The translations under genes were made by a program, and so were the position numbers. A DNA stretch of 63,961 bases, counting the filler, from Octopus bimaculoides (Eukaryota): NCBI RefSeq assembly GCF_001194135.2. It is 4 parts of 3 records of this genome, joined end to end, with 100 filler letters (N's around TTAATTAATTAA, not from the genome) between each part and the next. Parts side by side here need not be neighbours in the genome. Positions count along the whole stretch, not along the records: positions 1 to 23,295 come from NC_068992.1; positions 23,396 to 46,550 come from NC_068984.1; 2 more parts are not named here. One strand, given 5' to 3'. This document shows positions 3,675 to 26,022 of this stretch, piece after piece (positions within the stretch are counted from its first letter, which is position 1; each line of letters begins with the position of its first letter). The notes under the pieces are model-generated. The model ran no database searches, was not told the DNA's origin, and saw only the letters and a program-made list of their open reading frames with translations.

Positions 3675-3676
<2 letters not shown>

Positions 3677-4334: not shown

Positions 4335-4336
<2 letters not shown>
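4186..4336 (-). mobile_element. SINE family A, 5' half
   Basis: Reverse-complement match to the head and body. Confidence 0.75.
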
Positions 4337-4393
<57 letters not shown>

Positions 4394-4394
4394 T

Positions 4395-4791
4395 ACAAAA
4401 TTAAGGGATCAGCAACAGTTGCTTCACCACATACCGAAGTTCAGAAATAGCAGCTAAAATGAGGGATGATGAGCTAGCTGGCCTATGTAAGTTTGGAGAT
4501 GTTTTCAAACTGTGCCGATTGTGTGATGGCGCTCGGTCACACATGCACATTTGCTAGCATCGTCGAATTTGCAACTGGAATATCATACTGATGAGGTAAT
4601 GAAGAGTTTTTCCTTCTAAGCCAGAAACATGTATATGATTAACTATGACTAGTTTAGTTCGTTATTCTTTTCTTCTTGTTTTGCCTTTGTGAGTTACAGG
4701 TAATGCTATCTGTTGGAGTTTCAGCATTTTAGCTGCTATTTCTGAACTTCGGTATGTGGTGAAGCAACTGTTGCTGATCCCTTAATTTTGT
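4395..4791 (+). mobile_element. 397-bp element with 67-bp perfect inverted repeats enclosing a hammerhead motif (probable non-autonomous Penelope-like derivative)
   Basis: 4395-4461 is the exact reverse complement of 4725-4791. The HHR lies in the spacer. The element abuts (TA)n and has no clear TSD. Confidence 0.75.
4582..4639 (+). ncRNA. Type I hammerhead ribozyme motif
   Basis: Stem I ATCATA(4582-87)/TATGAT(4634-39); core CTGATGA 4588-94; stem II GGT..GAAG/CTTC..GCC plus an extra A; GAAAC 4624-28; palindromic stem III ACATGT; GUA cleavage triplet (cut after 4633). A distal stem I helix AACTGG(4573-78)/CTAGTT(4649-54) is also possible. Confidence 0.75.
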
Positions 4792-5081
4792 TTATAAATG
4801 TATAAGAACTTTTAAATAAGTTCCTCACCGATAATGGTGCTTATATACCGAAGGGCTTGGTAAAAATTATTAATTATTAATTTATTAATAAATTGATAAT
4901 CCTTTACCCTTTTAATTGTGATATAGATAGAGAGATAGATAGATAGATAGATTAATGCATGTCTGTGAGACTGTATGTCCGTGTGCATCTATACATGCAT
5001 ACATAAATATATTCATCTTTACATTTATGCATACATACATACATACATACATAAATACATACATGCATATACATATTTACA

Positions 5082-5169
<88 letters not shown>

Positions 5170-5410
5170 TATGTGTATGTGTGTTTGTGTGTGTGTGTGT
5201 GTGTGCGTGCGTGAACCTGTGTGTCTGGATAGATATAAGGATATATATGTGTGTTATGTGTGTATGTATGAGTAATGTACATACACGTATTTACATAGAA
5301 AGTTTTGAAGAAATTTTTCGAAATAAAATCAAACATCAAGCAATTCTAAATAATTCGGAACAGACCAAACAAGGGAAAAGAGGGGGAGGAACCTCTCCCA
5401 CCTCCATCAA

Positions 5411-5457
<47 letters not shown>

Positions 5458-5467
5458 TAATAATAAC

Positions 5468-5518
<51 letters not shown>

Positions 5519-5927
5519 GGATAAGTAAAAAGCTAACAAGACCTAAAATCCCGACAAAACTAACAATAGTTGTTTTACTGTGCTTCTTGGAATGTAGTCT
5601 ATTTACACCATATGTTTAATACATAACAAGGAATTCTTCAGAATAAAAGGAATGGTTTTGTCTTTAGTTGGGGTAACGGGTTGCTGTTGTTGTTGTTGTT
5701 GCTTTATGTTTGTTTTAATTTTGACAGATATTATTTCTATTATTTAAGACGAGGAAACTGTGTTACTGTAATCTTAATGGTGAAATGTTTCTATTCGCTC
5801 GTCGTCGTCGTCGTCGCCGCCGCGGCCGCTGCTGCTGTTGCTATTTCGTCGCAGGCCGGTTCTGTACGAGCGCATCTACCATATTTATTTGGCATTCAAG
5901 TTGACGTAGTATTATACACTCTAAACT

Positions 5928-6472
5928 TGTAGTTCTCGATCATTATTTTTAACTATGGCCCCCTTTGATTACTATTTTTTTTAAAATTCAGGTGGATCCC
6001 CATTGCCATTCGATGTCTTAAAACCAATTTTATCGATACTTCTTTCCAAATTCCTATTTTGTGTGTCACACATTCCCTTGTGGAGGCTAAACTATGTAAA
6101 ACACCAGAGAAAGAAACGTTAGTGTTTCTAGTAATAAAATACATCTAAAGCAAAAAAAAAAAAAATTTCATGAACCCTTAAAATACTATAATGAACCCAA
6201 TTTACTATTTTGCTTGTNNNNNNNNNNTTTTTTTTTTTTTTTTTTTTTTTTGCTGGTTGTAAATTAGACTTGTAACTACAAAAACTTTGTACTTCCTATA
6301 TTCTAAGAAAAACATTGTCAACTTGAAAAAACACCTGATTCTCTTAAAACTCTATCGAACCTAAAATTTTTAGAAATTCAATATAATCATAGTTCTGGCT
6401 TTGTGGGGGGTCCACCAGAATAAAACGGTAATCAAATGGAACCACAGGTGAAAAAATGTTTGAGAACCAATA
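5928..6472. mobile_element. Degraded hAT MITE of the same family as 27274-27694
   Basis: Internal sequence aligns with the 27.3-kb copy (GATACTTC..AAATTCCTATT..AACTATGTAAAA..AGAGAAAG). Ends in TTTGAGAACCA. Confidence 0.55.
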
Positions 6473-7002
6473 ATTTATAGAAACAAGACTGAAATTAACT
6501 GACCTACTTTGACAGTTTTCCCTTCTGGCCATCCTTACTCCCATCCCTTTATCCACACTCTACCCGACGATCAAACATCATAGTGGGACGGCTATCAATC
6601 AAATTTCTGTTTTGTACTTTTTATGTTTAATTATACTGGCGGTGACTAAACTCAAGGTAGCTAGCCCTCTACCCCGTATGTCATCGACACATAATCATTT
6701 TTATTTCATGCTTTTCTTGTTGTAGTTGTTGTTTTGTTTAGGTGTTAATCGTGTCTGCCTTCTTAATATTCGAAGTAAAAACAGTGAACGGGAGAAGAAA
6801 AACAGCCACGGGAATAAGTTTCAGTTTTTGATATAGGGAAAAAGATAAGATATGACAAAAAAAAAACGATTTCACATTACTATAAATATATACTTTATAG
6901 TACACACACACATACATTATATTCATGCACACATATATACACACATGCATACATACAAACATACATACATACACAAACACGCACAAAAATTTATAGACAT
7001 AA

Positions 7003-7110
7003 ATGTACGTGGTTCCTGGTTCTGTTCCACTGCGTGGCACCTTGGGCAGGTGTCATCTACTATATCCTTGTGAGTGGATTTGGTAGATGGAAACTGAAAG
7101 AAGCCCGTCG

Positions 7111-7154
<44 letters not shown>

Positions 7155-7325
7155 GCCTGTCTGTTTTCTGTGCTCTGTTTATGTTCTGTTTTTCATTTTG
7201 TCCACGTTTTTTCTGTGACGTCCTGTACCCAGATATGCTTCTATATATACATGTAGATGTAGGTATGTACATACATGTACGTATATATGCATATACTCAC
7301 ATATTATTTGTATTATTATATATAT
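7003..7325 (+). mobile_element. SINE family A 5' part plus the same internal module as 1585-1735
   Basis: GTGGCACCTTGGGCAGGTGTC...GAAAGAAGCCCGTCG, then a CCTGTACCCAGATATGC-containing module. Confidence 0.75.
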
Positions 7326-8344
7326 ATTAAAATGTCCGCTTCCATTGATCCGGATACTTCCGCCTTCATAGATACTTATACATTCCTGGCTTAGCTACCT
7401 GTCTATTTCCTTCCCGTAATATTTCATAGCTGGAAATTCCCCCCACACCGCCACCAAAAAAATCCTCCGTAATAAATTCTTGGGTTATTGTTGACAAATA
7501 AGGTTTTTATGCTCGCTGGATCATTAAAATATAGGACTTAGGGAACGTCCAGCCAAAGTTTCTATTAGTATTCTGTTTTTATTTATTTATTTATTTTTCT
7601 TCCGTAATGAATTCTTGGGTTATTTTTGCCAAATGAGGGGAATATTTGTGGTTTCCGTGCCTGTTTATAGTTATCTTTTAAAAAAATTTTTTTAATGTAT
7701 CATATAGATGTAATTTTTGACGCTGAATCCGAATTTGTTATTCATTTATTCAAGAATAATGTTGCAAATATGTTACAGGTATTCAAAGTTTGATAATTTT
7801 CAAAATTTTCAGCCAATCACAAAACAGCACGTTCGCTGCCTCTTCCATCATNNNNNNNNNNGGGGGGGGGGGGCATCGGCATGTCAAAACATTAAACTAG
7901 TATTTTATAAAGTAAATTATCTTTTTCGTATCTCCTTGTCCTCCTTGTGCATATGCACAGCATCTTCGGTTAGTATGGAAACAGTTCTTCGCAATCAGCT
8001 ATGTAACACGAGGTGCTTCTTTGCTTTGGTTACTATGGAAATAGAAATTTTCGCCACGGTGATACATAAAATATTCGTTTCTGATTGGCTAAAATACACA
8101 AATTTTGCAAATTTCAAAGGCTAATAACTTTTTAATTATGGATTTATGGGAACAATAAATTTCATTTTCATAATTGGTATACAAAACTTAAGCCATCTAC
8201 CAAATTTGAAAACAACTGGAACGAAATTGTAAACACCGACGAAAGCCACAAAGACTCGAATGAGGTTCTATACTCGTTGGGTCATTAAAAAATGTTTATG
8301 TTGTTAAAATATGATTTGTTTTTGGTTTCATTATTTCATTCAAA

Positions 8345-8945
8345 GTAGCAGGCATGGCTATGTGCTTAAGAAGCTCACCTTGCTGTCACGCGGTTTCAGG
8401 TTCAGTCCCACAGTGGGAAACTTTTAACCAACTGTTTTCTATCATACTATAACACTATGACCACGGAATGGCCAAAGCCTTGTGAATGAATTTGATTGAC
8501 GGAAGCTGTGTGAAAGCCTGTTATATATTTGTGTGTGTGTGTGAGTGTGTGTATGTGTGTGTGCGCGCGTTTCTTTACGTTTGTTTGTCCACTACTATAT
8601 ATGATGGGCTTTTTCCAGTTTCTATCTACCAAATCTTTTTCTTGTACATACCCCAAACGTTTTCGATTCCTTTTGATCGTCGTCCCTACTATTTTTTTTT
8701 TACCTTTTTTTTTTCGCCCCCATCGAAAAGAAAAACTCTACATTGTATTTGTCCCATCTGTGTTCAGCCCTGTGTGGCTAATAAAGAAAATTATCTACCA
8801 AATCTACTCACCAAATCTATCTACCAAATCTACTCACAAGGCTTTAATCGGCCCGAGACTATTGTAGGATACACTTCCCCAAAGTTGCTACGCAGTGAGA
8901 TTGAATCCGGAACCATTCAAAATGGTTGGCACGCTGGACAAATTC
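8345..8945. mobile_element. Cluster of degraded SINE family A halves (8345-8525 on +; 8592-8945 on -)
   Basis: Head and body matches in opposite orientations. Confidence 0.65.
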
Positions 8946-8949
8946 TTTA

Positions 8950-9125
8950 ATGGCATTTTGTCCGGCTTTGCTTTCTGATTTTGAATTCCTGTGAGGTCGA
9001 TTTTTACCTTTTATCCTTTCGGAGTCGATGAAATATATACCGGTTGGGTACTTAGGTTGATGTAATCGACTAGCCCTTCCCACCTCGAAATTCCAGACCT
9101 TGTGCCTATATTATAAAGGATTATT
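8950..9125 (+). mobile_element. SINE family C, 5'-truncated
   Basis: Core and tail match. Confidence 0.7.
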
Positions 9126-9254
9126 ATTAATAGTACTCGTATTAAGAGTACCGCTACCTGGGATGCCCTTTAATGATCGGGGTGGTCCAGGTCGGAGCGT
9201 TCTTTGGTTGTCCGATATTATCTTCAATCTTTTATTTTTTTTACCAGTTTTAGT

Positions 9255-9400
9255 TATTAGACTGCGGCCATGCTGGGGAACCGTCTTCAAGAATTTTTAG
9301 TCGGATGAATCGACCCTGGTACTTATTTTATCGATCTCTTTTGCCTAACCACCAAGTCACAGCGAAGTAAGCACACCAACACCGGTTGTCAAGCGGTATT
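9255..9400 (-). mobile_element. SINE family A, 3' half
   Basis: GACTGCGGCCATGCTGG...CGACCCTGGTACTTATT...CCGGTTGTCAAGCG. Confidence 0.75.
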
Positions 9401-9507
9401 TAGGGGTATGAACACAGACACACACACACACACACACATAAATATATACATATACACATAACACAATATACATATACACACATATATATATACATATATA
9501 CACACGA

Positions 9508-9546
<39 letters not shown>

Positions 9547-9878
9547 NNNNNNNNNNNNNNNNNNNNNNNNNNNNNNNNNNNNNNNNNNNNNNNNNNNNNN
9601 NNNNNNNNNNNNNNNNNNNNNNNNNNNNNNNNNNNNNNNNNNNNNNNNNNNNNNNNNNNNNNNNNNNNNNNNNNNNNNNNNNNNNNNNNNNNNNNNNNNN
9701 NNNNNNNNNNNNNNNNNNNNNNNNNNNNNNNNNNNNNNNNNNNNNNNNNNNNNNNNNNNNNNNNNNNNNNNNNNNNNNNNNNNNNNNNNNNNNNNNNNNN
9801 NNNNNNNNNNNNNNNNNNNNNNNNNNNNNNNNNNNNNNNNNNNNNNNATCATGATCACGATCATCCTCATCCTCATCC

Positions 9879-9923
<45 letters not shown>

Positions 9924-10237
9924 ATATCACCACCATCAACGCCGTCGTTATTATTCAACGCTGAACTTGTTCTAAACTTCACTCACGCTCATATATTTAT
10001 AACGGTTTCTTTGAAGTTTCCATGTATTCTATGAATGATAGTTTTATGTTTAGAAACAAGATCGTAGTGGAAAAGGGGACATACAGTATGTTAAGGGCTT
10101 TCGTTTTGAAAGGAGTCGAGATGATTGTGGGAGGGGTATTCAACCTGACCCATTTCATTCAACTTGTCCCACTTCCGCGAACACCTGTGAGTACATGTAC
10201 GGTAATTCTGCATGTACCGAATCACTGTAACTTCTAA

Positions 10238-10295
<58 letters not shown>

Positions 10296-10374
10296 AAACA
10301 TACATAGCCAAACACCTATATATATATACATGCACATATACATATACAGATACAAACTCACACTTGCAAACGCA

Positions 10375-10523
10375 ACGTTCTGAGTTCAAATTCCGCCGAG
10401 GTCGACTTTGCCCTTTCATCCTTTCGGGGTCGATAAATTAAGTACCAGTTGTGTACTGGAGTCGATCTAATCGACTGCCCCACCTCCCACAAAATTTCAG
10501 ACCTTGTGCCTCTAGTAGAGCGG

Positions 10524-10603
<80 letters not shown>

Positions 10604-10793
10604 GGCCACGAGCTGGTAGAATCGTTAGTACGCCGGGTAAAATGCTTAGCGGTATTTTGTTCTGAGTTCAAATTGCGCCAAGGTCGACTTTGTCTTTCAT
10701 CTTTTCGGGTCGATTAAATAAGTACGCACTGGGGTCGATATAATCAACTTAATCCCTTCCCCCAAATTTGAGGCCTTGTGCTTCCAATAGAAA

Positions 10794-10797
<4 letters not shown>
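10375..10797 (+). mobile_element. Two tandem tRNA-derived SINE family C copies (10375-10527, 10604-10797), each with an (ATT)n tail
   Basis: GAGCTGGTAGAATCGTTAG A-box-like and GAGTTCAAATT B-box-like motifs, GTCGACTTTG..CTTTCATC core, GGCCTTGTGC..(ATT)n end. Confidence 0.9.
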
Positions 10798-10834
<37 letters not shown>

Positions 10835-10860
10835 ATGACCTTTCTTTTGGTATATTTCAG

Positions 10861-11285
10861 GACAGAAAACTATATTAACAGTTCTACTACATCGGAACCG
10901 GCCCCTAGTGCGGAAGCAGTAGGTGAGGGAATCGTACTCATCATCATCTGTTTGTTTGCGTTTTTCGGTAATACTTTGTTATGTACAGTAATACTAAGGA
11001 CACGTTCGTTAAGAAACAGCTCAACATATTTGATCCTTTGTCTTTCTATATCGGATATCGTAGTCACTGTGGTGAATATGCCATTGACCATTTTCTCTAT
11101 ATTCAAAGGAATTTGGCCATTCACGGAGGATGATTGTGTTGCGTTGGGCTACATAAATATGGTTAGTTTTATTGCCAGTGTCATGTCTCTCACTGCCATA
11201 AGTCTGAACCGCTATTTTAGAATATGTCGTTCCCTGCACTTCAAATCGATGTTTACTTTCAAGAAGACAATGATGATGGCTTTTG
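10861..11285 (+). CDS. Internal coding exon of a class A (rhodopsin-family) GPCR, N-terminus end through TM1-TM3 and ICL2; melatonin-receptor/Tre1/Moody-like
   Basis: Acceptor ttggtatatttcAG ends at 10860 and donor G|GTAAGT starts at 11286 (425 nt; phase 2 in, phase 1 out). Open frame reads TENYINSSTT...EGIVLIIICLFAFFGN (GN1.50)...YLILCLSISD (D2.50)...WPF...C3.25...SLTAISLNRYFRIC (NRY in place of DRY). The MLPIEILLLL start of the track ORF is intronic (ATT)n. Confidence 0.93.
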
Positions 11286-11340
11286 GTAAGTAGTTTTTTT
11301 ATCTTTCTTTTCTAACCTTCATTATTTAACTCTCTATTAA

Positions 11341-11560
11341 GGCGGTAAGTTGGCAGACTCGTTAGCACACTAGACGAAATGCTTAGCGGTATTTCGCCCG
11401 TCACTACGTTCAAAGTTCAAATTCCTCCGAGGTCGGCTTCGCTTTTCATCCTTTCGGGGGTCAATAAATTAAGCACCAGTGAAATACTGGGGTCGATGTA
11501 ATTGACTAGTCCTCTCTCCCCCAAATTTCAGGCCTTGTGCCTCAAGTAGAAAGGATTATT
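11341..11560 (+). mobile_element. SINE family C, full length
   Basis: GGCGGTAAGTTGGCAGACTCGTTAGCAC...AGTAGAAAGGATTATT. Confidence 0.9.
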
Positions 11561-11631
11561 TAACTCCCTATCTATCCTGCAAACTGTTTCTGTTTCTGTT
11601 GCCTGTATTCGCTACACCTTTCTATATAAGA

Positions 11632-12035
11632 CTCCTTTCTACTATAGACACAAGGTCTGAAATTGTTGAGTCGGGGCTAGTCGATTACATCAATCGCAGT
11701 GCTCACGCAGCTGGTACTTAATTTCATGAAAGCCGAAAGAATGAAAGTCAAGATCAATCTCGGCAGAATTTGAACTCAGAACGTAAAACCGGAAGAAATG
11801 CCGCTAAGTCCAGCGTGCTAACAATTCTGCCAGTTTACTGATTTATGATTCTGTCTGCTCCGCTTCTGATTTAGGCACAAGGCCAGTAATTTTTAGTCTA
11901 ACGGAAGTAATCAATATCATCATAGACCCGGAAACAATGAAAGGCAAAATTCGATGTTAGCAACATTTGAAATCAGAACGTAAAGTGCCAGAAAAAATGC
12001 TGCTTAAGCAGTTTGTCCAATGTTCTAACGATTCT
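11632..12035 (-). mobile_element. Two antisense SINE family C copies (11632-11836, ~11870-12035)
   Basis: Reverse-complement matches to the family C consensus. Confidence 0.8.
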
Positions 12036-13276
12036 CTCAGAAGGAAGAGGAAGCGAAAAAAAAAAAAAAGACTGGTCGTCAGTTTATGAAGAACATTCTG
12101 TTTCTAGATTCAAATAACTTGAATAAGCAATGCTCTTTTGTACGTTTCNNNNNNNNNNNNNNNNNNNNNNNNNNNNNNNNNNNNNNNNNNNNNNNNNNNN
12201 NNNNNNNNNNNNNNNNNNNNNNNNNNNNNNNNNNNNNNNNNNNNNNNNNNNNNNNNNNNNNNNNNNNNNNNNNNNNNNNNNNNNNNNNNNNNNNNNNNNN
12301 NNNNNNNNNNNNNNNNNNNNNNNNNNNNNNNNNNNNNNNNNNNNNNNNNNNNNNNNNNNNNNNNNNNNNNNNNNNNNNNNNNNNNNNNNNNNNNNNNNNN
12401 NNNNNNNNNNNNNNNNNNNNNNNNNNNNNNNNNNNNNNNNNNNNNNNNNNNNNNNNNNNNNNNNNNNNNNNNNNNNNNNNNNNNNNNNNNNNNNNNNNNN
12501 NNNNNNNNNNNNNNNNNNNNNNNNNNNNNNNNNNNNNNNNNNNNNNNNNNNNNNNNNNNNNNNNNNNNNNNNNNNNNNNNNNNNNNNNNNNNNNNNNNNN
12601 NNNNNNNNNNNNNNNNNNNTTGTATTTTTTTTAAATAAGCTGATTTCATTGGACCACCCAGTCAACTACACGCACGCGCGCACACTATCACTCACTCACA
12701 CACACACACACACACAAAGAAAAAAGATATATACACTATCTTGGAGCTGTCATCGAATATGGGATGAAATTTTGTGGGAAAGAGAATCGAGAGAGAAAAA
12801 AATATAGCGTTGATTATAAGGAAAATGTATTATAGTTTTTTGAAACGTCATTTTTTTCCATTTTTCTTCTGTTTTCCGTTTTTTTTCTTCAAAGATTGCT
12901 ATCACAAGATTAAAAAAAATATGGCGTGTCTAACTTCTTTTGAGATCTTCCCTAAATAAACACATGCCATTGGTCGTTTCTGTTAAAATGAGAGTTTTGT
13001 CGTCGACGTTTAGGTGTAGTTAGGACAAAAATATCAAAAGCACCATAAATATGTAAATAAATAAGATATAGACATTTAGACTATTAAAATGCAATGATTT
13101 CTCTTGGGTACATATTAGACATTTTGGGAATATCAAAAAACAAGGAAGTTCTTTACTTTGTAAGCCGATGGCCTCGGTATGGGTGCAAACTGTGGCAGTC
13201 TTGGTAACGATGTATGTCCAACTTCATGGAAAAATACACGTATGGTAATCAATCCTGCAAATGATACACACACACA

Positions 13277-13480
13277 CGAAGGAGTGCTGAAAAGTTTTTG
13301 GCTTTGGGTAAAAGAAAATACAGTAAGATCAGTTAATTACGATTATATTCAACACATTCTCCTCTCAGATTCACACACTTATTGCAGTGGTTCTTCAGTT
13401 TTTCTAAGCCCTGTAAAAGAACTCGGAGGGTTGGACCTCCAACCAGGCCTTTCGTGATATCTTTTTCAGCACCCTCATCG
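13277..13480. mobile_element. mariner-type MITE
   Basis: CGAAGGAGTGCTGAAAAG at the left end and CTTTTCAGCACCCTCATCG|TA at the right: imperfect terminal inverted repeats. Confidence 0.6.
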
Positions 13481-13496
13481 TATATACACACACACA

Positions 13497-13532
<36 letters not shown>

Positions 13533-13732
13533 GTCGCCATGATAGATCGCTGACCACGACATTGAAATTTTTTTTCTCCGTGTTTTTCTCCTTGTTTTCT
13601 CTTTATTCTTTCTGTTGAAGAGCGTAGCTCGAAACGTTAAAGACTTTCTCTATTACCGAGCGTTAAACTAATACATCCTTTTGTTGTTTACACCACCTGT
13701 CCTCGTCTGTTGATTTTATCGTAAATTCTCCC
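13533..13732 (+). mobile_element. ~200-bp (TA)n-flanked repeat carrying a hammerhead-like motif (13607-13643), family E copy 2
   Basis: TCTTT-CTGTTGA-A-GAGCgtaGCTC-GAAAC-GTT-AAAGA. Shares CGCCATGAT...GAGCGTTAAACTAATAC...GTAAATTC with copy 1. Confidence 0.65.
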
Positions 13733-14686
13733 ATATATATATATATATATATATATANNNNNNNNNNNNNNNNNNNNNNNNNNNNNNNNNNNNNNNNNNN
13801 NNNNNNNNNNNNNNNNNNNNNNNNNNNNNNNNNNNNNNNNNNNNNNNNNNNNNNNNNNNNNNNNNNNNNNNNNNNNNNNNNNNNNNNNNNNNNNNNNNNN
13901 NNNNNNNNNNNNNNNNNNNNNNNNNNNNNNNNNNNNNNNNNNNNNNNNNNNNNNNNNNNNNNNNNNNNNNNNNNNNNNNNNNNNNNNNNNNNNNNNNNNN
14001 NNNNNNNNNNNNNNNNNNNNNNNNNNNNNNNNNNNNNNNNNNNNNNNNNNNNNNNNNNNNNNNNNNNNNNNNNNNNNNNNNNNNNNNNNNNNNNNNNNNN
14101 NNNNNNNNNNNNNNNNNNNNNNNNNNNNNNNNNNNNNNNNNNNNNNNNNNNNNNNNNNNNNNNNNNNNNNNNNNNNNNNNNNNNNNNNNNNNNNNNNNNN
14201 NNNNNNNNNNNNNNNNNNNNNNNNNNNNNNNNNNNNNNNNNNNNNNNNNNNNNNNNNNNNNNNNNNNNNNNNNNNNNNNNNNNNNNNNNNNNNNNNNNNN
14301 NNNNNNNNNNNNNNNNNNNNNNNNNNNNNNNNNNNNNNNNNNNNNNNNNNNNNNNNNNNNNNNNNNNNNNNNNNNNNNNNNNNNNNNNNNNNNNNNNNNN
14401 NNNNNNNNNNNNNNNNNNNNNNNNNNNNNNNNNNNNNNNNNNNNNNNNNNNNNNNNNNNNNNNNNNNNNNNNNNNNNNNNNNNNNNNNNNNNNNNNNNNN
14501 NNNNNNNNNNNNNNNNNNNNNNNNNNNNNNNNNNNNNNNNNNNNNNNNNNNNNNNNNNNNNNNNNNNNNNNNNNNNNNNNNNNNNNNNNNNNNNNNNNNN
14601 NNNNNNNNNNNNNNNNNNNNNNNNNNNNNNNNNNNNNNNNNNNNNNNNNNNNNNNNNNNNNNNNNNNNNNNNNNNNNNNNNNNNNN

Positions 14687-14994
14687 GTGCAAGTGGCTGA
14701 GCACTCCACAGACACGTGTACCCTTAACGTAGTTCTCGGGGATATTCAGCGTGATACAGTGTGACAAGGGTGACCCTTTGAATTACAGGCACAACAGAAA
14801 CAGGAAGTAAGAGTGAGGGAAAGTTGTGGTGAAAGAGTATACAGCAGGGTTCGCCACCATCCCCTGCCGGAGCCTCGTGGAGCTTTAGGTGTTTTTCGCT
14901 CAATAGACACTCACAACGCCCGATCAGGGAATCGAAACCGCGATCCTATGACCGCGAGTCCGCTGCCCTAACCACTGGGCCATTGCGCCTCCAC
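14687..14994 (-). mobile_element. SINE family D, 3' end lost in a gap
   Basis: Near-identical to 43670-43976. Confidence 0.9.
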
Positions 14995-15077
14995 TGTGTT
15001 AAAATATTTATGCAAGAAACAACGACCAAAGCAGTAGCAACAACGACTACATTAACAGCAACAACACCGATGATAAT

Positions 15078-16175: not shown

Positions 16176-16801
16176 CTTCTTTTACTTTTTCTCATCTAAC
16201 TGGCTTATGTCATAGTCGACAAAAAGCACTAACCATAAATTGGAGTGTCGAGTAACGGGCATTAACCATATCCGGCGATTTAAATTCCTTCTACGCATTT
16301 TGTCTTCAATGTCTATGCACAACTTTCATAATATTGTCTAGCTTCTGTCGTATTACACAAGACACCCAATTAATATGTTCGTTGTCACATGAGCATTCCT
16401 ACATTTAACTTATTTATATTTACACAAGTAAATATAAAAGATGCAGGTTAATAAAATATTTTAAATATTCAAATAAAATTTAGTGTGCCCATTCTTGTCT
16501 TCATATGCAACCTACTTAACACTGCGTACTACCAACGAAGATTATATGACTAACCACCAAGCAAAAATGGTATATTTTAAATAGATTTTAAACAATTTTC
16601 CGAAATTTTATATCTACTCTCATTTTCCCCGACAGTAGACCATCAATATATTCCAGATTTTACTCTACTTTAATATCATTTAAATGAAGCAATATCTTAT
16701 TACACAATATGTTTTTAAACAGAATAAGTCTTTGTTTTTTTTTTTTAATTGTAGCTCAGCAAAACGGTTGCTAAAGTGTTGACAGCACGACATGCTCTGT
16801 A

Positions 16802-16836
<35 letters not shown>

Positions 16837-17104
16837 ATGATTGCTATAGCTATATGTAACGGCCAACCATTTGTTTCAGAATCACTCAATACGTTTCTAT
16901 AGAGTATATACATTTGTTTTATTTTTATATTTTTACATACTAATGCCAACTTTAAAGGTCAACTATCGTTCATACTTAAATCTAAGTTAATAAATACCAC
17001 ATTCTCGCTCCTAGTGTCGGTATTTTAAAATGGTGTCCACTTTCTAACACTGCATAGAAGCATGCGCACACACGCACGCACGCACGCAGACACACGCACA
17101 CACA

Positions 17105-17137
<33 letters not shown>

Positions 17138-17644
17138 GATATATTTTAAATAGATTTTAAACAAATAGATTTTAAACAATGCGTGTTCATGGCTGTGTAG
17201 ATATATATATATATATATATAATTTTATTGGGAGTATTTTGCAACAACGTTTGTTCGGAGAAGGTTGTTCAAGACAACAATGCAAAACCGTAACTTATAA
17301 AAACGATATTACTCATAGAATAAAGGCATCGACACAACGACACGCGTATACAAACACACTTTATTTCACGTTGCCTCAGTCCACGTACATGTAAAACGGG
17401 CCACCCTGCAACGAACTGGTGTACCGTTCAAAGGAGAATGTAGGCCTGCCCGCCTAGCGAGCGCAGTGACATTATTTCAAGGTTACAATAATGCGAGGTA
17501 GCGCATTGTGAACAGCGGTGTATGACATCTGATAGTATGGTCGATACAATGATCTATGATTTTAGAAGAGCTATTTAAGAAAGAACGGATGATTTACATT
17601 GCATTTTTATTACATATAAATCTTATTGTCCGTGCAATAAATGA

Positions 17645-17800
17645 GTAGTACCTGTAATTCAAAAGGCCAGCCTTGTCATGTTCTGTATCAGACTGAATAT
17701 CGCCTGAGACCTACGTTATGGGTATATGTGTCTGTGGAGTGCTCAGCCACTTGCACGTTAATTTTACGAGCAGGCTGTTCCGTCGATCAGATCAACTGGA
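17645..17800 (+). mobile_element. SINE family D, 3' half
   Basis: Body match. Confidence 0.8.
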
Positions 17801-18378
17801 AATCTTGATTTGATTGATTGAGTGATTGACTGATTGATTGATTGATCGATATCAATATATATATATATATANNNNNNNNNNNNNNNNNNNNNNNNNNNNN
17901 NNNNNNNNNNNNNNNNNNNNNNNNNNNNNNNNNNNNNNNNNNNNNNNNNNNNNNNNNNNNNNNNNNNNNNNNNNNNNNNNNNNNNNNNNNNNNNNNNNNN
18001 NNNNNNNNNNNNNNNNNNNNNNNNNNNNNNNNNNNNNNNNNNNNNNNNNNNNNNNNNNNNNNNNNNNNNNNNNNNNNNNNNNNNNNNNNNNNNNNNNNNN
18101 NNNNNNNNNNNNNNNNNNNNNNNNNNNNNNNNNNNNNNNNNNNNNNNNNNNNNNNNNNNNNNNNNNNNNNNNNNNNNNNNNNNNNNNNNNNNNNNNNNNN
18201 NNNNNNNNNNNNNNNNNNNNNNNNNNNNNNNNNNNNNNNNNNNNNNNNNNNNNNNNNNNNNNNNNNNNNNNNNNNNNNNNNNNNNNNNNNNNNNNNNNNN
18301 NNNNNNNNNNNNNNNNNNNNNNNNNNNNNNNNNNNNNNNNNNNNNNNNNNNNNNNNNNNNNNNNNNNNNNNNNNNNNN

Positions 18379-18418
<40 letters not shown>

Positions 18419-18423
18419 AATAA

Positions 18424-18830
18424 GGCGCAAGCGTGGCTGTGTGGTAAGAAGCTTGCTTCCTAACCACATGGTTCCGAGAATGGTTAAGAAGTACACTTTT
18501 TGGCCTCACGGTTTCCCGTTTCGCCCCACGGCAGCAACTTGAGCTATAGCCCCGAGCCGACCAATACCATTCCATTTAATTATAATACACGAAAACTATG
18601 CAGAAGTACGTTGCACGTGATATGTGTTTGTGTTTGTTCGCCCCACCGCCTCTTGACAACCAGTGTTGGTTTGCTTTCACTTCTGTAATTTGGTGCTTCG
18701 GTCAGTGACATCAACAAAATAAGTACAAGACGTAGAATGTGAACTGGGCTCATCGATGTGTTCGACTGGCCCTAAAACGCTATGCCCCAGTATGGCCGTA
18801 TTCCTTGTACTGAGATAAATGAGCAAAAAG
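18424..18830 (+). mobile_element. SINE family A, degraded
   Basis: GGCGCAAGCGTGGCTGTGTGGTAAGAAGCTTGC head and tail remnants. Confidence 0.7.
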
Positions 18831-19226
18831 GACACGCACACACACACACTCACACTCACATGCACGCACACGCACACGAAGAAGTTTGAAAACTTCCCTT
18901 TCTATGTTATCTTTGTATCAGCTTCCGTTTAGATGCTTGGGTGTGTATATTTGTTTTATATACGACAGCATTTACGATTGTTTGACGTATACAGTCGTGT
19001 ACAGCAGTATATATATTACATTACTATCTTATATCGGCAATGTGTACACGTACCAGGATATATGTTTCCATGTGTATGTTTGTATATGTATACTCTTTTA
19101 ATCTTTTATTTGTTTCAGTCATTTGACAGAATCCATGCTGGAGCACCGCCTTTAGTCGAAGACATTGACCCCGGGACTTATGTTTACATATATGTGTAAA
19201 CATACATGTTAACATATATTTATAAA

Positions 19227-19277
<51 letters not shown>

Positions 19278-19931
19278 GCTTACATAACCATTTATGCATA
19301 TATGTGTATATCTGTATGCAATTATTCAAATATGTATTCAATATATGCATTTCAAATATATCTAATATACATATGTAAATGCGCATGCACACACAAACAC
19401 ACGCATCGAAACTGCAAAGATAATCTGGAACTCGACTGACGAAAGAAAACTCCGAATGATCCGTCCTAGTTTTTTCTTGTCCCTTTTTGTATCATCCAAC
19501 TGTCTGGATGTCTTGTTCTCGCCTGTTGCGTTCTTGTCCCGTGTGTTCCTTTGATATGTAAGAATACTGTGTGGAGAATTTAAGAGCGCTACACAAAATC
19601 AAGATACAGAAGAAAAAAAAAGCAGATTACCATCTACAAACCAGAAATCAGCAACATCACGGTGTTTGTCTGTCTATACTGAACCAATATTTCGCCAGGT
19701 ATAAACAGATATCTGAACTTAGACCCCCCCAAAGTTCTCTGCAGTTTTCATCTATGAAAATGATCATTGAGGGTCATTTACATTTCGAGAAATTATCTAC
19801 AATTTTCATTTACAGAAAAAATTCTATCTGCCAGCGACCTATTTGTATAATCAGGATTATGCAACATGATCGTAATCATTGCAGATAATAGAGCAGGGGT
19901 TGCCAAAAGGTTCATCGGAAAATGACAGCCG

Positions 19932-19978
<47 letters not shown>

Positions 19979-20049
19979 AATCACTTGTTGGTGATCAGAT
20001 ATAATTTGTTGAGTCACATACCCTGCATAACCACACAATCGGATGTTCT

Positions 20050-20131
<82 letters not shown>

Positions 20132-20148
20132 CATCATCATCATCATCA

Positions 20149-20224
<76 letters not shown>

Positions 20225-20230
20225 CATTAC

Positions 20231-20275
<45 letters not shown>
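20050..20275. repeat. (ATT)n/(ATC)n microsatellite running into a gap
   Basis: Directly visible. Confidence 0.97.
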
Positions 20276-20850
20276 NNNNNNNNNNNNNNNNNNNNNNNNN
20301 NNNNNNNNNNNNNNNNNNNNNNNNNNNNNNNNNNNNNNNNNNNNNNNNNNNNNNNNNNNNNNNNNNNNNNNNNNNNNNNNNNNNNNNNNNNNNNNNNNNN
20401 NNNNNNNNNNNNNNNNNNNNNNNNNNNNNNNNNNNNNNNNNNNNNNNNNNNNNNNNNNNNNNNNNNNNNNNNNNNNNNNNNNNNNNNNNNNNNNNNNNNN
20501 NNNNNNNNNNNNNNNNNNNNNNNNNNNNNNNNNNNNNNNNNNNNNNNNNNNNNNNNNNNNNNNNNNNNNNNNNNNNNNNNNNNNNNNNNNNNNNNNNNNN
20601 NNNNNNNNNNNNNNNNNNNNNNNNNNNNNNNNNNNNNNNNNNNNNNNNNNNNNNNNNNNNNNNNNNNNNNNNNNNNNNNNNNNNNNNNNNNNNNNNNNNN
20701 NNNNNNNNNNNNNNNNNNNNNNNNNNNNNNNNNNNNNNNNNNNNNNNNNNNNNNNNNNNNNNNNNNNNNNNNNNNNNNNNNNNNNNNNNNNNNNNNNNNN
20801 NNNNNNNNNNNNNNNNNNNNNNNNNNNNNNNNNNNNNNNNNNNNNNNNNA

Positions 20851-21140
20851 GAACGTAACGGCGGACGAAATACCGTTGAGCATTTTGCCCGGCGTGCTAA
20901 CGTTTCTTATTTCTTTACTGCCCACAAGGGGCTACACACAGAGGGGACAAACAAGGACAGACGAAGGGATCAAGTCGATTACATCGATCCCAGTGCGTAA
21001 CTGGTACTTATTTAATCGACCCCGAAAGGATAAAAGGCAAAGTCGACCTCGGCAGAATTTGAACTCAGAACGTAACGGCGGACGAAATACCGTTGAGCAT
21101 TTCGCCCGGCGTGCTAACGATTCTGACAGCTCGCCACCCT
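20851..21140 (-). mobile_element. Two tandem SINE family C variant copies
   Basis: GAACGTAACGGCGGACGAAATACCGTTGAGCATT..CCCGGCGTGCTAACG occurs at 20851 and ~21069. Confidence 0.8.
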
Positions 21141-21712
21141 TAAGAAGAATTATTATAATTACCCGTTACATACTCGGCTTCTTACTGGAGATGCTTCGTG
21201 TACCAGCTGCTCACTTCTCGTGAAGCAAGGTGGTTTTTTTCTTTTTGTGTCTCAAGAACTTTGCGCACACTCGTTGCACTATCAAGTAACGCTGTTTTCT
21301 GGATGTGTCCTATTTTCCATTTTTAAACCTATATTTTCCAAGAAACTTTTAATAATTTCTTTTAATTATGAAGAATTACTATCTAATATTATTAGTAGTA
21401 TTAGTATTGTTATAACCATTATATCATTACTATCATCATCATCATCATCATTAACAGCAGCACCATCGTCATCATTATTAAACTTTTAAAACGTAATTTG
21501 AGGCCTTCTCTTAATGACGTGGTTACGTAGACGAGAAGGGCATGTGACCTTGTGTGTGTGTGTGTGTGTGTAACTGCGTTCGCATGTATATGCATGGGAT
21601 GTGTGTCTGTAACCTTCATGCGGAGATCCTTGACATTTTCAAATAACTGTAAAGAGATATTTTTCATTGAACCACCATTTCGTCTCAGTTCTATGCCTTA
21701 ATATGTGTGCGC

Positions 21713-21749
<37 letters not shown>

Positions 21750-22765
21750 CACGCGGGCATGTTTATGTGTGAATGCATATGTGTGTGAGTGTGTGTGTTC
21801 GTATGTTTGTGTGAGTATATATTTGTCTATGTGTGCGCACATGCGCGTGTATGTGCGTATGTCTATATATGTGCTTAGGTGTGTTTGTGTGCACGCTCGT
21901 GTGTGTGTATGCAAACATACATATATGCTCACATACATATATGCACACATACATGTCTATATATTTATGTGTTAGTTTTAAATATGTCTGGTATGTGCAT
22001 ATACATACATACATACATACATACATACATACATACATACATACATACATACATACATACATACATGCATGCATGCATTCATACATACATACATATACAT
22101 ACACACACATATACATACCCACTCATATGCACACATATATACATATATTTATTTTTTTACTTATATTTATATATATATATATATATGTCAGGTCGCTCTT
22201 GGGCGCTACTGGTAACATGTAACCCAGTACAGCCTGTTGCATGGTCGGTTCGTCGACGACTGAACTGGCAACCGCATCAAGTTTTCTTGGTGAGGAGGGT
22301 GATCGTTGGACGCCCTGCAGGACGAAAAATAAGGCCTATCATAGGGCGGAAGTGCTCATGAGCAGGCAACGGCCATCCAGCAATATGTGTACATGTGTAT
22401 GTATGCATGTATGTGAGCGTGGGGACGTGAAAATACCCGGTTTGGTGTCTAGGCTGCAGTTGGCCCACAGAGAATAGGAGGCCCATTGTTGTTACATCTC
22501 TCTTGGAGAGGGAAACTCTGAGAGGAAACCTGCGACACTGATAATATTCGATGATGTAGACTGGTTCTTCTTTTCCAGTTTATGTTGTCCATGTTCAGAG
22601 AGTGGGGTTGGATTTGTGCAAATTCTGTTTCCACTATTAAAAAAATCATCATGGACCGGCATCGCTTGAAAAAGAGCAAGATCTATCACAAAAATGGCCG
22701 GTTGTAGCCTTCGCATATGTGGAACTTTCGATCAGCCAATAACAATACTCGAACACGAGTTTGCA

Positions 22766-22809
<44 letters not shown>

Positions 22810-23295
22810 GTTATGAAGGGTATTGGAATCAACCAAACCGTAAAAATACAGGCAATAACGAGTAAGTGCTGTATACCGACTAGTTTTGCCCCTGTCGTGG
22901 TTGCAACATGAGTGGGGAATATAACATGGGTCGTGTATTAGCGTGTGTATATATATTCTTTCTTTATATATATATATGTATATATAAATATGAATAAAGA
23001 TAAAAAAGGGTTTTGTATGATCGTGCATATAGGAATATATTATTTAAAAGAGTTCATCAAGGTCCCGTCTGACAGCAGATGGGACCTTGATGACTGCTAT
23101 GAGGCAGGAAAGTATACTAGTCTTTATATATTTAATACTCAATATTTCATATATTCAATAAGACATTGAATACTTCATTTCATTTTACTATTTATATTAT
23201 ATATTCCATATTCTATATCCCACATTAATTTTATAAGAATATAAATAAAACATAAAAAAACAGACAGAGTTGGAACTCTTTTAAATAATATATAT

Positions 23296-23395
23296 NNNNN
23301 NNNNNNNNNNNNNNNNNNNNNNNNNNNNNNNNNNNNNNNTTAATTAATTAANNNNNNNNNNNNNNNNNNNNNNNNNNNNNNNNNNNNNNNNNNNN
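23296..23395. other. Artificial scaffold join (44 N + TTAATTAATTAA + 44 N)
   Basis: The identical 100-bp construct occurs three times; the 12-mer has stop codons in all six frames. Confidence 0.95.
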
Positions 23396-23505
23396 GATCT
23401 GATAAACTTGGCATTCGTAATTATTATCTTCGTTAACTGTATCATCTTTGTCATCATAGTCGGGGGTGATTGCCATTATCGTCGTCGTTGTGATCATCAT
23501 AATCA

Positions 23506-23542
<37 letters not shown>

Positions 23543-23550
23543 TGTCGCTG

Positions 23551-23587
<37 letters not shown>

Positions 23588-24630
23588 TATCATCACCACC
23601 ACCACCACCACCACCACCACTATCACAACAACAACCGTTGTCATCACCATTATCATATCATTATCACCATCATCATCATCATCCACATTATCATACTCAT
23701 CTTCATCATCATCATTGTCATCGTCATCATCATCACCATTTCTATCGTCGTCATCATCACCATCGTAATCATCACCATCAGTATCCTCATCATCAACCTC
23801 ATTACGATCATAAACTTTATAATCCATCATCATAATCGTCATAATCCATCATCCTAATCGTCATAATCCATCATCACCGTCATTACCATCATCATCATTA
23901 TCATCACCGTCATTGTCATCGTCTCATCAGCATCATCGTCATCATCGATGTCATCATCATCGTCTCATTACTATCATCATCATCAAAATTATCCTCCTCC
24001 TCCTTCTCATTATCATCATCATCAAAATCATCACTATCATCATCATCATCGTCGTCGTTGTCGTCGTCATCATCATCATCATCATCACTATCGCAATCAT
24101 TATCCTAATTCATCAATATTCACAACCATTGTCATGGTCGTCATTCTTCGTTATCGATAATACCACTATAATCCTATAATCACCACCCACCCAACGCTAT
24201 CGCCATCACAACTACTACCACCACAACTACAGCAAATACTAGCACTCCCTCTACAACTACCACCGTCACTATCATCACCTTTACTACGGCAACTACTCCT
24301 ACCACTAACACTACAACCACCACTACAAATATCTGCACCACTGACGCCACTTGTAGCACTACCAGTACCACTGCCAACTACTCAACAACCACTAGCTCTA
24401 CCACTACCACCACCAGAAATACTACCACCTTTACCACCTCAATTATACCACTACTTCTACCGCAACTATTGCTTCCACCACCTCCATCTCTACCACCACC
24501 ATTTCCAGCATCACTACCAGAATCATTACCACCACCGTAACTGTTACTACCACCGCTACGACTACTACCGCTACTTCCACCACCACCATAACTATTACTA
24601 CCACGTATGCTATTATCACTGCTAACCAGA
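23396..24630. repeat. Long compound, degenerate trinucleotide tract (ATC/GTC/ACC/ACT)
   Basis: Directly visible; the source of the poly-His/Ser/Thr/Asp pseudo-ORFs. Confidence 0.95.
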
Positions 24631-25579
24631 CGCTTGAGAGAGTAGCCTTGTTTTCTTTCTGTTTCTGAAATAGGAGCCCTTAAAGTTTTAGTAACAGGAA
24701 ACTTATTTCCTACGAGAGTGAGGTTTCAAACCCGGTTAAAGTATGTGTTCGGGAATGAAGATAAACAAAAAATTCTTGTCTTTGTTTCCTGTTTTGTTTT
24801 GTTGTTGTTTAGGTTTTTTTTTTTTTTTNNNNNNNNNNTTTTTTTTTTTTGTTCTTTGTTTTTTTTTTGCTTTTTGCTTTTTGAAAACGACCGAAGCAAC
24901 ACTAGAGGGTTAATGCGTTGCTATTGTTGTAGTTACTGTTGTTGTAGTTGCTGTTCATGATGATGATGATGATGATGATGATGATGTTGCCGCTGTCGTT
25001 GATGTTTCTGCTCTTGGAAGCAGTTTTAGAAAATCATATAATGTTGCATACATAGTGCGTCGTAATATAGAAGAATGCGTTATAATGTAGTGTAGTAACA
25101 TCATACTGTAGTTAGAGCATTATAATATAGCGTAAAACATAACGCAGCAAAGCGTATCTTAGTGAAGTTTCATGTAGCATAATGTAGTTTAGTGTAGCAT
25201 AATGCAACGCAGTGTTAATGCAGTAATGCAGCATAATGAAGGATTGTGCATCATAATATAATGTAACACAATATACTATAGTGTACGCGATGTAGAATAA
25301 TGTAGTGCACCATAATATAACATTGCGTTTCATAATGTAGTGCACCATAATATAGTATTGTGTTTCATAATGTAGTTTATTGTAGCATAATACAATGTCT
25401 ATCGAATTTTAGTGTAGAGTACCTTAACACGTTAACCGCCACATGTACTTCCGTGGGCTCGTTGCAAACTTCACAGAACCGTCATATGGGCGACCAGTGG
25501 TATTTGAGAAAATGTTTTATTCTCATTAGGAATGATCTAATTATATATCTCACAGAGAGAATTAAGCAGCAGTGTTACG

Positions 25580-26022
25580 ATAAAGCAGTTGTATACTGTC
25601 AACTTAATGTGACAGTCCCAATAAGGGAATCATACTGCTGCTATTTAGCCCTAGGAAACTGGACCGCTTACTGTCGGCCTTGACACATTTCCTGTGTCCT
25701 TATATTTGCGAGAGGGAGACAAGCACCTCCACCCAGCCTAGCCTGCATTCAGAGACATGTTTCTGAGTCATTGCTCGTCATCAGCCTGAAGTAGCAACAC
25801 TAGCTGGCTGAAAATGCATGTCAAACCCTCGCAAATATATATATTTTTAGTGAAAACACATTCACTGGTTACAGGGTGCTTGTCTCCCCCTCGTAAATAT
25901 AAGGACACAGGAAATGTGTCAAGGCCGACAGGAAGCGGTCCAGCTTCCTAGGGCTAAATAGCAGCAGTATGATTCCCTTATTGGGATTGTCACATTGAGT
26001 TGACAGTACACAACTGCTTTAT
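25580..26022 (-). mobile_element. 443-bp element with 148-bp inverted repeats enclosing a hammerhead motif (probable non-autonomous Penelope-like derivative)
   Basis: 25580-25727 matches the reverse complement of 25875-26022 at 141/148 by my alignment. The HHR lies in the 147-bp spacer. Confidence 0.78.
25748..25790 (-). ncRNA. Type I hammerhead ribozyme motif
   Basis: Minus strand reads TTCAGG-CTGATGA-CGAGcaatgaCTCA-GAAAC-AT-GTC-TCTGAA: 6-bp stem I with one G.U, intact core, stem II GAG/CTC with a C.A closing pair, palindromic ACATGT stem III, canonical GUC site. Confidence 0.75.

Follow-up and report, generated by a model that had tools for sequence, protein, structure and literature searches.

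Two hammerhead-bearing repeat families in Octopus bimaculoides, likely passengers of Penelope-like retrotransposons

The non-LTR retrozymes of metazoans are short, non-coding units of 150-450 bp arranged head to tail, with units of 350-390 bp in mussels and 330/350 bp in the axolotl (Cervera and de la Pena 2020, PMC7229834), and those of Xenopus are related to the pLTRs of Penelope-like elements (PLEs; Li, Clavereau and Pollet 2026, 10.64898/2026.07.22.740005). A helper for animal retrozymes has been proposed from co-occurrence and pLTR similarity (PMC7229834; 10.64898/2026.07.22.740005). Insertions of PLEs have an inverted 5'-truncated copy and a one-sided tail (Craig et al. 2021, PMC8557442), as well as target-site duplications (TSDs) of 8-10 bp (Arkhipova et al. 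2013, PMC3846280). The tail, 30-40 bp in print, corresponds to the distance between two reverse transcriptase (RT) start sites, with both target strands being cut and extended (Frangieh et al. 2024, PMC11167929). An inverted partial copy with a tail is not described for retrozymes in the main texts of PMC7229834 and 10.64898/2026.07.22.740005.

We analysed a stretch of 63,961 nt, filler included, from Octopus bimaculoides (GCF_001194135.2), hereafter the window, which contains two elements, A and B (Table 1). Each has a hammerhead motif, for which self-cleavage is predicted, and was inserted together with a partial copy in mirror orientation, a tail and a duplicated target, so both are likely parasites copied by Penelope-like retrotransposons. 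A and B each represent one genomic copy of a separate repeat family, and both families are high-copy, non-coding and hammerhead-bearing. We consider it probable that these families are non-autonomous passengers (retrozymes) of endonuclease-bearing PLEs, and that their inverted arms are by-products of insertion, not terminal repeats. The class (non-LTR retrozymes or non-autonomous PLEs) is already known from other animals, and A and B are new octopus members. A first-pass annotation had described two elements of 400-440 bp with long inverted arms around a hammerhead. The arms and both type I motifs were confirmed but the lengths were not, since contigs continue to about 4920 and to 25525, giving about 525 bp for A (4395-4920) and 497 bp for B (about 25525-26022).

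Table 1. Features of elements A and B, in window coordinates.
Feature	Coordinates	Strand	Basis or remark
A left TSD copy, candidate, ATATAGATA	4387..4395		end of (TA)n tract
A inverted partial copy, 67 nt, identical to 4725-4791	4395..4461	-	sequence comparison
A forward copy, 459 nt, non-coding, GC 0.35	4462..4920	+	contigs, ORF search, alignment
A type I hammerhead motif	4582..4639	+	stem I 4582-4587/4634-4639, core 4588-4594, stem II 4595-4622
A motif, 3' part	4623..4633	+	extra A 4623, GAAA 4624-4627, palindrome 4627-4632, predicted cut after 4633
A one-sided extension, about 129 nt past mirrored segment	4792..4920	+	arm-level depth; contigs crossing 4791; loose ends behind 4804 and 4917
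A right TSD copy, candidate	4921..4929		(GATA)n then follows
B left TSD copy, 12 bp, TTTTATTCTCAT	25515..25526		last 2 nt possibly tail
B one-sided tail, 53-55 nt	25525..25579	-	contigs (X1); carried by minority of family copies
B forward copy, 349 of 351 nt, non-coding, GC 0.42	25525..25873	-	unit junctions in contigs, ORF search
B type I hammerhead motif	25748..25790	-	stem I 25790-25785/25753-25748, core 25784-25778, 3-bp stem II
B motif, further features	25748..25790	-	predicted cut after 25754 (GUC); an extra A, GAAA and the ACATGT palindrome
B inverted partial copy, 148 nt, 95% to 25580-25727	25875..26022	+	inverted-repeat search, alignment
B right TSD copy	26022..26033		sequence comparison
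Older short-TIR DNA element flanked by TTAA, insertion host of B	25424..26254		contig joints

Both elements contain a type I hammerhead motif, as retrozyme units do, with CTGATGA, a stem I of 6 bp and a 3' part of the form A-GAAACATGT-H. A relaxed type I descriptor has exactly two matches in the window, at 4588-4633 (+) and 25754-25784 (-), compared with a mean of 0.22 in shuffled sequence. A strict descriptor, tailored to these two motifs, also has two matches, compared with none in each of 100 shuffles. No hammerhead family is among the 150 of 166 matches listed from an Rfam scan of the window, only microsatellite-driven miRNA-type matches. Further copies of A (4381-4830) or B were not found within the window, where 4831-4920 was covered by whole-window self-comparison only. 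Exact-pattern scans also gave no match: metagenome and viral contigs were scanned for the B hammerhead, and metagenome contigs for the A arm.

The motifs resemble the minimal hammerheads of PLEs (Cervera and de la Pena 2014, PMC4209133) in the CUGANGA core and in a palindromic 15.2-16.2 region predicted to act as a dimer, and B also has an unpaired base after A9. Both depart from the minimal consensus by an additional A that separates stem II from GAAA; it can also be read as an N-A mismatch in the lowest position of stem II, comparable to the U-U mismatch of an axolotl motif (PMC7229834). Stem I is extended into a long predicted rod, and U4C, reported as activity-lowering (PMC3088659), is common in family A (30-48% of contig depth over the ribozyme). 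The predicted cut-site triplet of A is GUA, and in most family copies it is GUC (4633 is C in 65-82%). Stem III of family A occurs in two palindromic forms, ACATGT and ACGCGT. The changes 4629 A>G and 4630 T>C have matching fractions in public sequencing runs (37/48% in X1, 68/68% in X2 and 51/49% in X11), and the palindrome is therefore kept.

The lone active fold is predicted to be unstable (-2.6 versus an MFE of -9.0 kcal/mol in A, +1.5 versus -8.3 in B). Units minus the inverted arm have predicted folds with z of -5.4 (A) and -6.2 (B) relative to 100 shuffles, which, together with a GC content below 50%, fits the low-GC, highly self-paired RNA of retrozymes. The forward copy of A is predicted to form a rod (4462-4672) bearing the ribozyme, then a branched 3' domain. 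Among the variants listed, 5 keep a predicted pair in B, 3 break one and 9 are unpaired; in A, stem III pair aside, 10 single changes keep a pair and 5 break one, and the double change 4523/4540 keeps one. Fold-keeping variants carry little weight because transitions often keep pairs by chance. Three short motifs occur in the same order in A and B, with alignment scores that are not significant (42-135 of 1000 shuffles reach an equal score), in agreement with the first-pass statement that the two lack obvious similarity outside the hammerhead.

The layout of both elements, a shorter inverted copy, then the forward copy, a one-sided tail and a target duplication of 9-12 bp, is the published PLE insertion footprint, not the terminal repeats of a MITE. 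An inverted copy had been placed upstream of the forward one from the outset, correctly, although the mirrored part is a sub-terminal segment and not the very 3' end, as had been thought. The arms have 0/67 mismatches in A (4395-4461/4725-4791) and 7/148 in B (25580-25727/25875-26022). As in insertions of EN+ PLEs (PMC3846280, PMC8557442, PMC11167929), the inverted 5'-truncated copy is joined head to head at the 5' end and varies among copies, the tail is one-sided, the TSD is about 10 bp, the targets are AT-rich or (TA)n, and the hammerhead lies near the 3' end. The TSDs also fit the retrozyme trait of more than 4 bp: the 12 bp of B were reached by 0 of 3000 random pairs, and the 9-bp candidate of A is weak because it lies in a microsatellite. 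In contrast to EN+ PLEs, no ORF for RT and GIY-YIG lies between the TSDs of A or B, so these copies are not autonomous PLEs, and the forward units contain no ORF in six frames, as first described.

The one-sided extensions are longer than the 30-40 bp in print, being 53-55 nt and optional in B, and about 129 nt and present in many copies in A. The depth of X1 contigs is 2,200-4,500 over the B tail versus 62,000-109,000 immediately inside it, and loose contig ends before 25580 are TA-rich. In A, contig depth is 27,000-38,000 over 4784-4909 (X1), contigs bridge 4791, and family ends occur at 4804 and about 4917-4929, then TA, with loose ends behind 4917. Both extensions (4792-4920 and 25525-25579) had been overlooked in the first pass. 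That the A extension is a direct duplication of the A 3' part was rejected, there being no meaningful alignment.

Long, near-perfect inverted arms about a non-coding spacer could also be the long terminal inverted repeats of DNA-transposon MITEs or of fold-back elements in which a hammerhead-like motif occurs by chance. Some arm-to-arm joints may be internal deletions, several having unknown letters between. This explanation is largely refuted, and we regard it as exceedingly unlikely. Fixed TIRs with an abutting TSD are absent: the tail sets the TSD apart from one arm, and the arm junctions vary. Of 70 joints in B, 15 are listed, and seven of these connect the two arms, each at a different position and never at the 25727/25875 of the window copy; of the 15 listed in A (of 20), 10 connect the left arm with varying positions and 4 switch strands. 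Within its family, the junction between arm and spacer seen in each window copy is rare (in A, the X1 depth is 67 immediately within an arm that has 21,000-60,000), family contigs ending at 25873 continue into the tail, and the second palindromic form of stem III also argues against a chance motif. The DNA element that hosts B, with short TIRs, looks quite different; we take it to be piggyBac-like. Its other copies lack B, with contig joints from 25475-25501 to 26026-26031. Elsewhere in the window, the four longest inverted repeats (50029-50905) are artefacts that span an N run. Variable inner junctions, the one-sided tail, the 9-12 bp duplication and (TA)n-adjacent ends bear out the first-pass view of several PLE-type families and not ordinary MITEs.

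In public contigs, A and B are high-copy families with variable inner junctions. A head-to-tail junction of a 351-nt B unit occurs in three runs (depth 45 in X1, where the flank has about 8-9, 36.6 in X7 and 34.9 in X2), joining 25873 to 25525 with 2 letters between (X1, X7) or 25859 to 25525 (X2). The B copy in the window is thus a complete family unit except for 2 nt. For A, the 15 joints listed (of 20) include no unit junction. The miniature non-autonomous unit first proposed for both elements is upheld for B by its junction and the lack of an ORF, and is more tentative for A. The contigs are short, and neither locus has two consecutive hammerhead units, each being a monomer with one hammerhead. 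B, with the size of a mussel retrozyme, and A share with non-LTR retrozymes a type I hammerhead, a short palindromic stem III, a non-coding low-GC unit, strong predicted self-pairing, TSDs of more than 4 bp and dispersed monomers, and B shares the head-to-tail junction. They differ in their octopus host and in that the monomers have an inverted partial copy and a tail.

The same footprint is expected of PLEs themselves (PMC8557442, PMC3846280), and A and B could be 5'-truncated stubs (pLTR ends) of protein-coding PLEs, in which the hammerhead is the PLE's own and has no separate small-RNA life cycle. PLE hammerheads are mostly single motifs from truncated PLEs (PMC4209133), and octopus PLEs exist (PMC8557442, PMC8967140). 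In A, depth climbs toward the 3' end as in 5' truncation (X1: 67-115 at 4460-4531, 1,400-3,800 at the ribozyme, about tenfold below the 3' part, and 19,000-53,000 further 3'), although diverged subfamilies, with loose ends before 4668 and 4679, could also explain this gradient. RNA reads of family A also extend beyond 4917 into further sequence. In B, however, the tail joins directly to 25873 in three runs, and an ORF would not fit into those copies. Such stubs are more plausible for A than for B. Neither motif has a coding frame upstream or downstream, whereas the pLTR and tail of Pen2a and PAc include the ORF start (PMC11167929, PMC3846280). The hammerhead of Hydra-1_Obim is unlike both motifs. 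Overall, we consider truncated coding PLEs an unlikely source.

No match to named autonomous PLE families was found in a comparison restricted to the Hydra-1_Obim hammerhead and four short motifs, and short motifs of A and B are absent from the octopus entries in the supplement of Craig et al. 2021 (PMC8557442). An ORF near B (28773-29159), considered as a PLE remnant, has no Pfam match, no longer homologue and atlas scores of at most 0.76, and its motifs are absent from the Naiad/Hydra supplement. The non-autonomous Chlamys PLEs, such as MRC1 (PMC8557442), are likewise passengers of PLEs that do not code for protein and whose copies include pLTR-like and head-to-tail forms, but they are algal, mostly lack canonical hammerheads and are paired to autonomous partners by 3' similarity.

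Copying of A and B as SINE-like non-coding elements by a LINE (non-PLE) enzyme, with inversion by twin priming, appears very unlikely. Twin priming by LINEs inverts a non-overlapping 5' part, but the inverted part of A and B duplicates sequence of the forward copy and begins at a second fixed inner end, and no poly(A) or simple-repeat tail lies inside the TSDs. TSD length is compatible with a LINE enzyme, LINE partners have been named as possible helpers (PMC7229834), and RTE, Dong-R4 and CR1 LINEs abound in octopus genomes (PMC8967140).

For passengers of PLEs, we infer the following cycle. The unit (351 nt in B, at least 459 nt in A) would be transcribed from tandem copies, and two hammerheads may pair via the palindromic stem III and release monomers, perhaps circularised. 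In AT-rich or (TA)n DNA, the RT-endonuclease of a PLE would make nicks in the two strands, 9-12 bp apart, and reverse transcription would begin inside the RNA at two fixed sites. A long cDNA from the outer site and a short one from the inner site, joined head to head, would then leave the inverted copy, forward copy, one-sided tail and target duplication. In about 6% of each run examined, 591 RNA reads fall on B (X21) and 523 on A (X22), in both directions; 75-78% continue into unlike sequence and 5 per run are 99% alike. The results listed for these standard cDNA libraries include neither an accumulation of read starts or ends nor an RNA unit junction, and a sequencing-run search with B had no RNA run among those listed. 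Insertion of PAc in vitro did not require cleavage (PMC11167929), and 8/9 Xenopus dimers were without cleavage (10.64898/2026.07.22.740005).

A more tentative and rather doubtful possibility is that B is a fossil of one complete reverse-transcription turn by a Penelope enzyme on a 351-nt ribozyme-made RNA circle, and that the extra-A hammerhead is an octopus core variant common to unrelated families. Synthesis would have begun 229 nt downstream of the cut, at the tail site, passed the cut/ligation site and stopped 2 nt before its own start. If true, this would, in combination with the TSD, tail and inverted copy, provide direct genomic evidence for the copying of retrozyme circles by PLE machinery, which has so far only been proposed. 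Elements like A and B are prone to misannotation as MITEs. The link that they add is that a retrozyme-sized unit itself bears the PLE insertion footprint, with two mappable start sites that make the helper question testable.

Elements A and B, two repeat copies each carrying a hammerhead (see table), are probably non-autonomous units copied by Penelope-like elements (PLEs). In both, a target-site duplication (TSD) is followed by an inverted partial copy, a forward copy, a one-sided tail and the second TSD. The inverted arms proposed in the first-pass annotation do enclose the two hammerheads (67 nt with 0 mismatches in A; 148 nt with 7 mismatches in B). Its size of 400-440 bp holds for the span from arm to arm and falls short of the full extent, as B has a further 53-55 nt tail and A reaches approximately 4920. 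The two elements show no significant similarity outside the ribozyme, as had been claimed (42, 94, 112 and 135 of 1000 shuffles score equally high in four tests). The direct repeat outside the tail and arm of B is 12 bp long, a length reached by 0 of 3000 random pairs; the 9-bp candidate TSD of A is weak and lies in a microsatellite.

Features of the window, with positions and strands
Feature	Position	Strand
A, inverted arm	4395-4461
A, forward copy	4462-4920	+
A, relaxed-descriptor hammerhead match	4588-4633	+
A, candidate TSD	4387-4395, 4921-4929
B, forward copy	25525-25873	-
B, relaxed-descriptor hammerhead match	25754-25784	-
B, inverted arm	25875-26022
B, direct repeat	25515-25526, 26022-26033
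Extra A of the motif	4623 (A), 25764 (B)
CCT-AAT-T-run-GT motif	4780-4791 (A inner end), 4908-4919 (A outer end), 25525/25873 (B unit junction)
Host element of B	25424-26254
Near-duplication in host element	25502-25523, 26035-26056
TA-adjoining repeat	3711-3851, 13587-13728
Its hammerhead-like motifs	3736-3763, 13612-13638
Abundant family	43595-44524, 14687-14995, 3465-3628, 17645-17801
GPCR exon	10862-11284	+
128-codon frame	28773-29159	+
183-codon frame	46595-47146	-
Helix-turn-helix remnant	59071-59391	-

The accessible text of PMC8557442 gives endonuclease-bearing PLE insertions this same layout, an inverted 5'-truncated copy with a 30-40 bp tail. PLE insertions have 8-10 bp TSDs, with mobilisation in trans between pseudo-LTRs (PMC3846280, in part). 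According to the available portion of PMC11167929, tail length equals the gap separating two internal RT start sites, both target strands are cut and extended, and ribozyme cleavage is dispensable in vitro. In our model of A and B, two cDNAs, one per start site, would be joined head to head. Copying by a LINE helper is improbable. A similar CCT-AAT-T-run-GT motif recurs at the inner and the outer end of A and at the B unit junction, and could be a start or nick signal.

Public data were matched to each element at 85% likeness, using 6 of 24 listed runs: RNA reads X21 and contig sets X1, X2 and X7 for B (query 25400-26260), and RNA reads X22 and contig sets X1, X2 and X11 for A (query 4388-4925). 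Summed contig depth in X1, which does not equal copy number, is approximately 8-9 on the outer flanks of B, 62,000-109,000 across 25574-25631 and 88,000 at the hammerhead; B is therefore a member of a very large repeat family. Depth of 2,200-4,500 across 25516-25573 indicates that a minority of copies have the tail. Contigs extend family A beyond its arm to approximately 4920, and TA follows the copy ends, which lie at 4804 and around 4917-4929.

These data bear on whether A and B could be MITEs, which we consider very improbable. Seven of the 15 B joints listed (70 in all) connect left with right arm, at seven different places, and this copy's own arm junction is absent among those 15. Of the 15 A joints listed, from a total of 20, 10 likewise connect the arms and 4 are strand switches. 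Such variable joints count against MITEs in a supportive, not decisive, manner because the letters inside some of them are unknown, and a deletion or a diverged relative could account for these. In addition, depth at the spacer start of A is 67 beside an arm at 21,000-60,000 (X1), and B is inserted in an older, TTAA-flanked element that has short TIRs and whose other copies lack B. Together these bear out the annotation's view that A and B are not ordinary MITEs. We take the host element to be piggyBac-like; a local near-duplication within it overlaps the TSD of B. One X2 contig has the left junction of B (94% identity), and because it overlaps the tail by fewer than 31 letters it only suggests that the insertion is shared with organism B, which would fit the 5% divergence of the B arms. 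A, whose arms are identical, is a young insertion.

Contig joints define a 351-nt head-to-tail unit without an ORF in the B family: 25873 is linked to 25525 across two letters in X1 (depth 45) and in X7 (36.6), and X2 has the corresponding link from 25859 to 25525 (34.9). The forward part in the window is this unit minus 2 nt. Were truncation uniform, a 5' end would fall no more than 2 nt from the junction with a chance of about 5/351, for a single instance spotted post hoc; other family copies are truncated elsewhere. This near-unit length fits one turn round a circle, and also a tandem transcript with copying halted where that site next occurs. The unit fits non-LTR retrozymes as described in the accessible part of PMC7229834, a group for which derivation from PLEs, as non-autonomous forms, has been argued (10.64898/2026.07.22.740005, in part). 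No head-to-tail unit junction was found for A among 15 joints listed (20 in all). That the copies, mainly A, are instead stubs of coding PLEs is unlikely, though less so than a LINE helper.

Hammerhead motifs are commoner in the window than in shuffled sequence: a relaxed type I descriptor gives 2 window matches versus 0.22 per shuffle, and a strict one, fitted to the A and B motifs, 2 versus 0 in 100 approximate first-order shuffles. Hammerheads are absent among the best 150 of 166 matches in an Rfam scan of the window. Both motifs comprise a 6-bp stem I, CTGATGA, stem II, an extra A, GAAA, a 6-nt palindrome and UH. The extra A, invariant among the family variants listed, is absent from the minimal PLE hammerhead consensus in the available text of PMC4209133 and from the insertions given in the accessible part of PMC3088659. 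The family A changes 4629 A>G and 4630 T>C occur at matching fractions (37/48%, 68/68% and 51/49% in three runs), giving a second palindromic stem III, as judged from per-run fractions and not single-contig linkage. Position 4633 is C in 65-82% of contig depth, and the catalytic-core change U4C (4589) accounts for 30-48% in three runs. Among the B variants listed, the only changes in the core region are one in loop II (25770) and one in stem I (25753), the latter pair-keeping. Lone active folds of both are predicted to be unstable, as expected for dimer-type motifs (PMC4209133, in part). Without the inverted arm, the units are predicted to fold much more stably than shuffles (z -5.4 for A, -6.2 for B), with stem I capping a long predicted rod (z -4.3 and -5.7).

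From approximately 6% of each RNA run, 591 reads matched B (X21) and 523 matched A (X22), in both orientations; 78% and 75%, respectively, continue into unlike sequence, and only 5 per run are 99% alike. There is no start or end pile-up among the matches listed from this fraction, and few X22 reads span the A ribozyme. The reads look like copies embedded within other transcripts, with no sign in X21 or X22 of processed monomers or circles, which such libraries may lose.

Other repeats in the window have hammerhead-like motifs. The two TA-adjoining copies (83% alike), each with a minimal motif with one core mismatch, GAAACGTT and a 4-nt palindrome, are probably a third PLE-related family. An abundant family with direct and inverted copies may be another decayed PLE-type fold-back; its half hammerhead-like core (GACGA...GAAATTAAC) fails both the relaxed and strict descriptors.

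Coding sequences include one exon of a Rhodopsin-family GPCR, with no further exons found within the window; it is 94% identical to an alpha-2B adrenergic receptor-like protein named for Octopus vulgaris and marks the window as octopus DNA. There is also a helix-turn-helix remnant of Tc1/Sleeping Beauty type (PF25787, E 3.4e-08, under the curated cut-off). The 183-codon frame may hold the N-terminal portion of an ORF from a non-LTR retrotransposon; a Pfam search gave no match. The 128-codon frame resembles, in our estimation, the stretch that follows the RT thumb in Neptune-type PLEs. Database searches gave no support for a PLE origin, and motifs of this frame are absent from the PMC8557442 supplement.

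We did not find a published description of either family, although Repbase, Dfam, subscription papers or supplements may contain one. The A and B families are real and new, and of an already known kind. What B adds, in testable form, is a unit-length copy carrying a PLE footprint.
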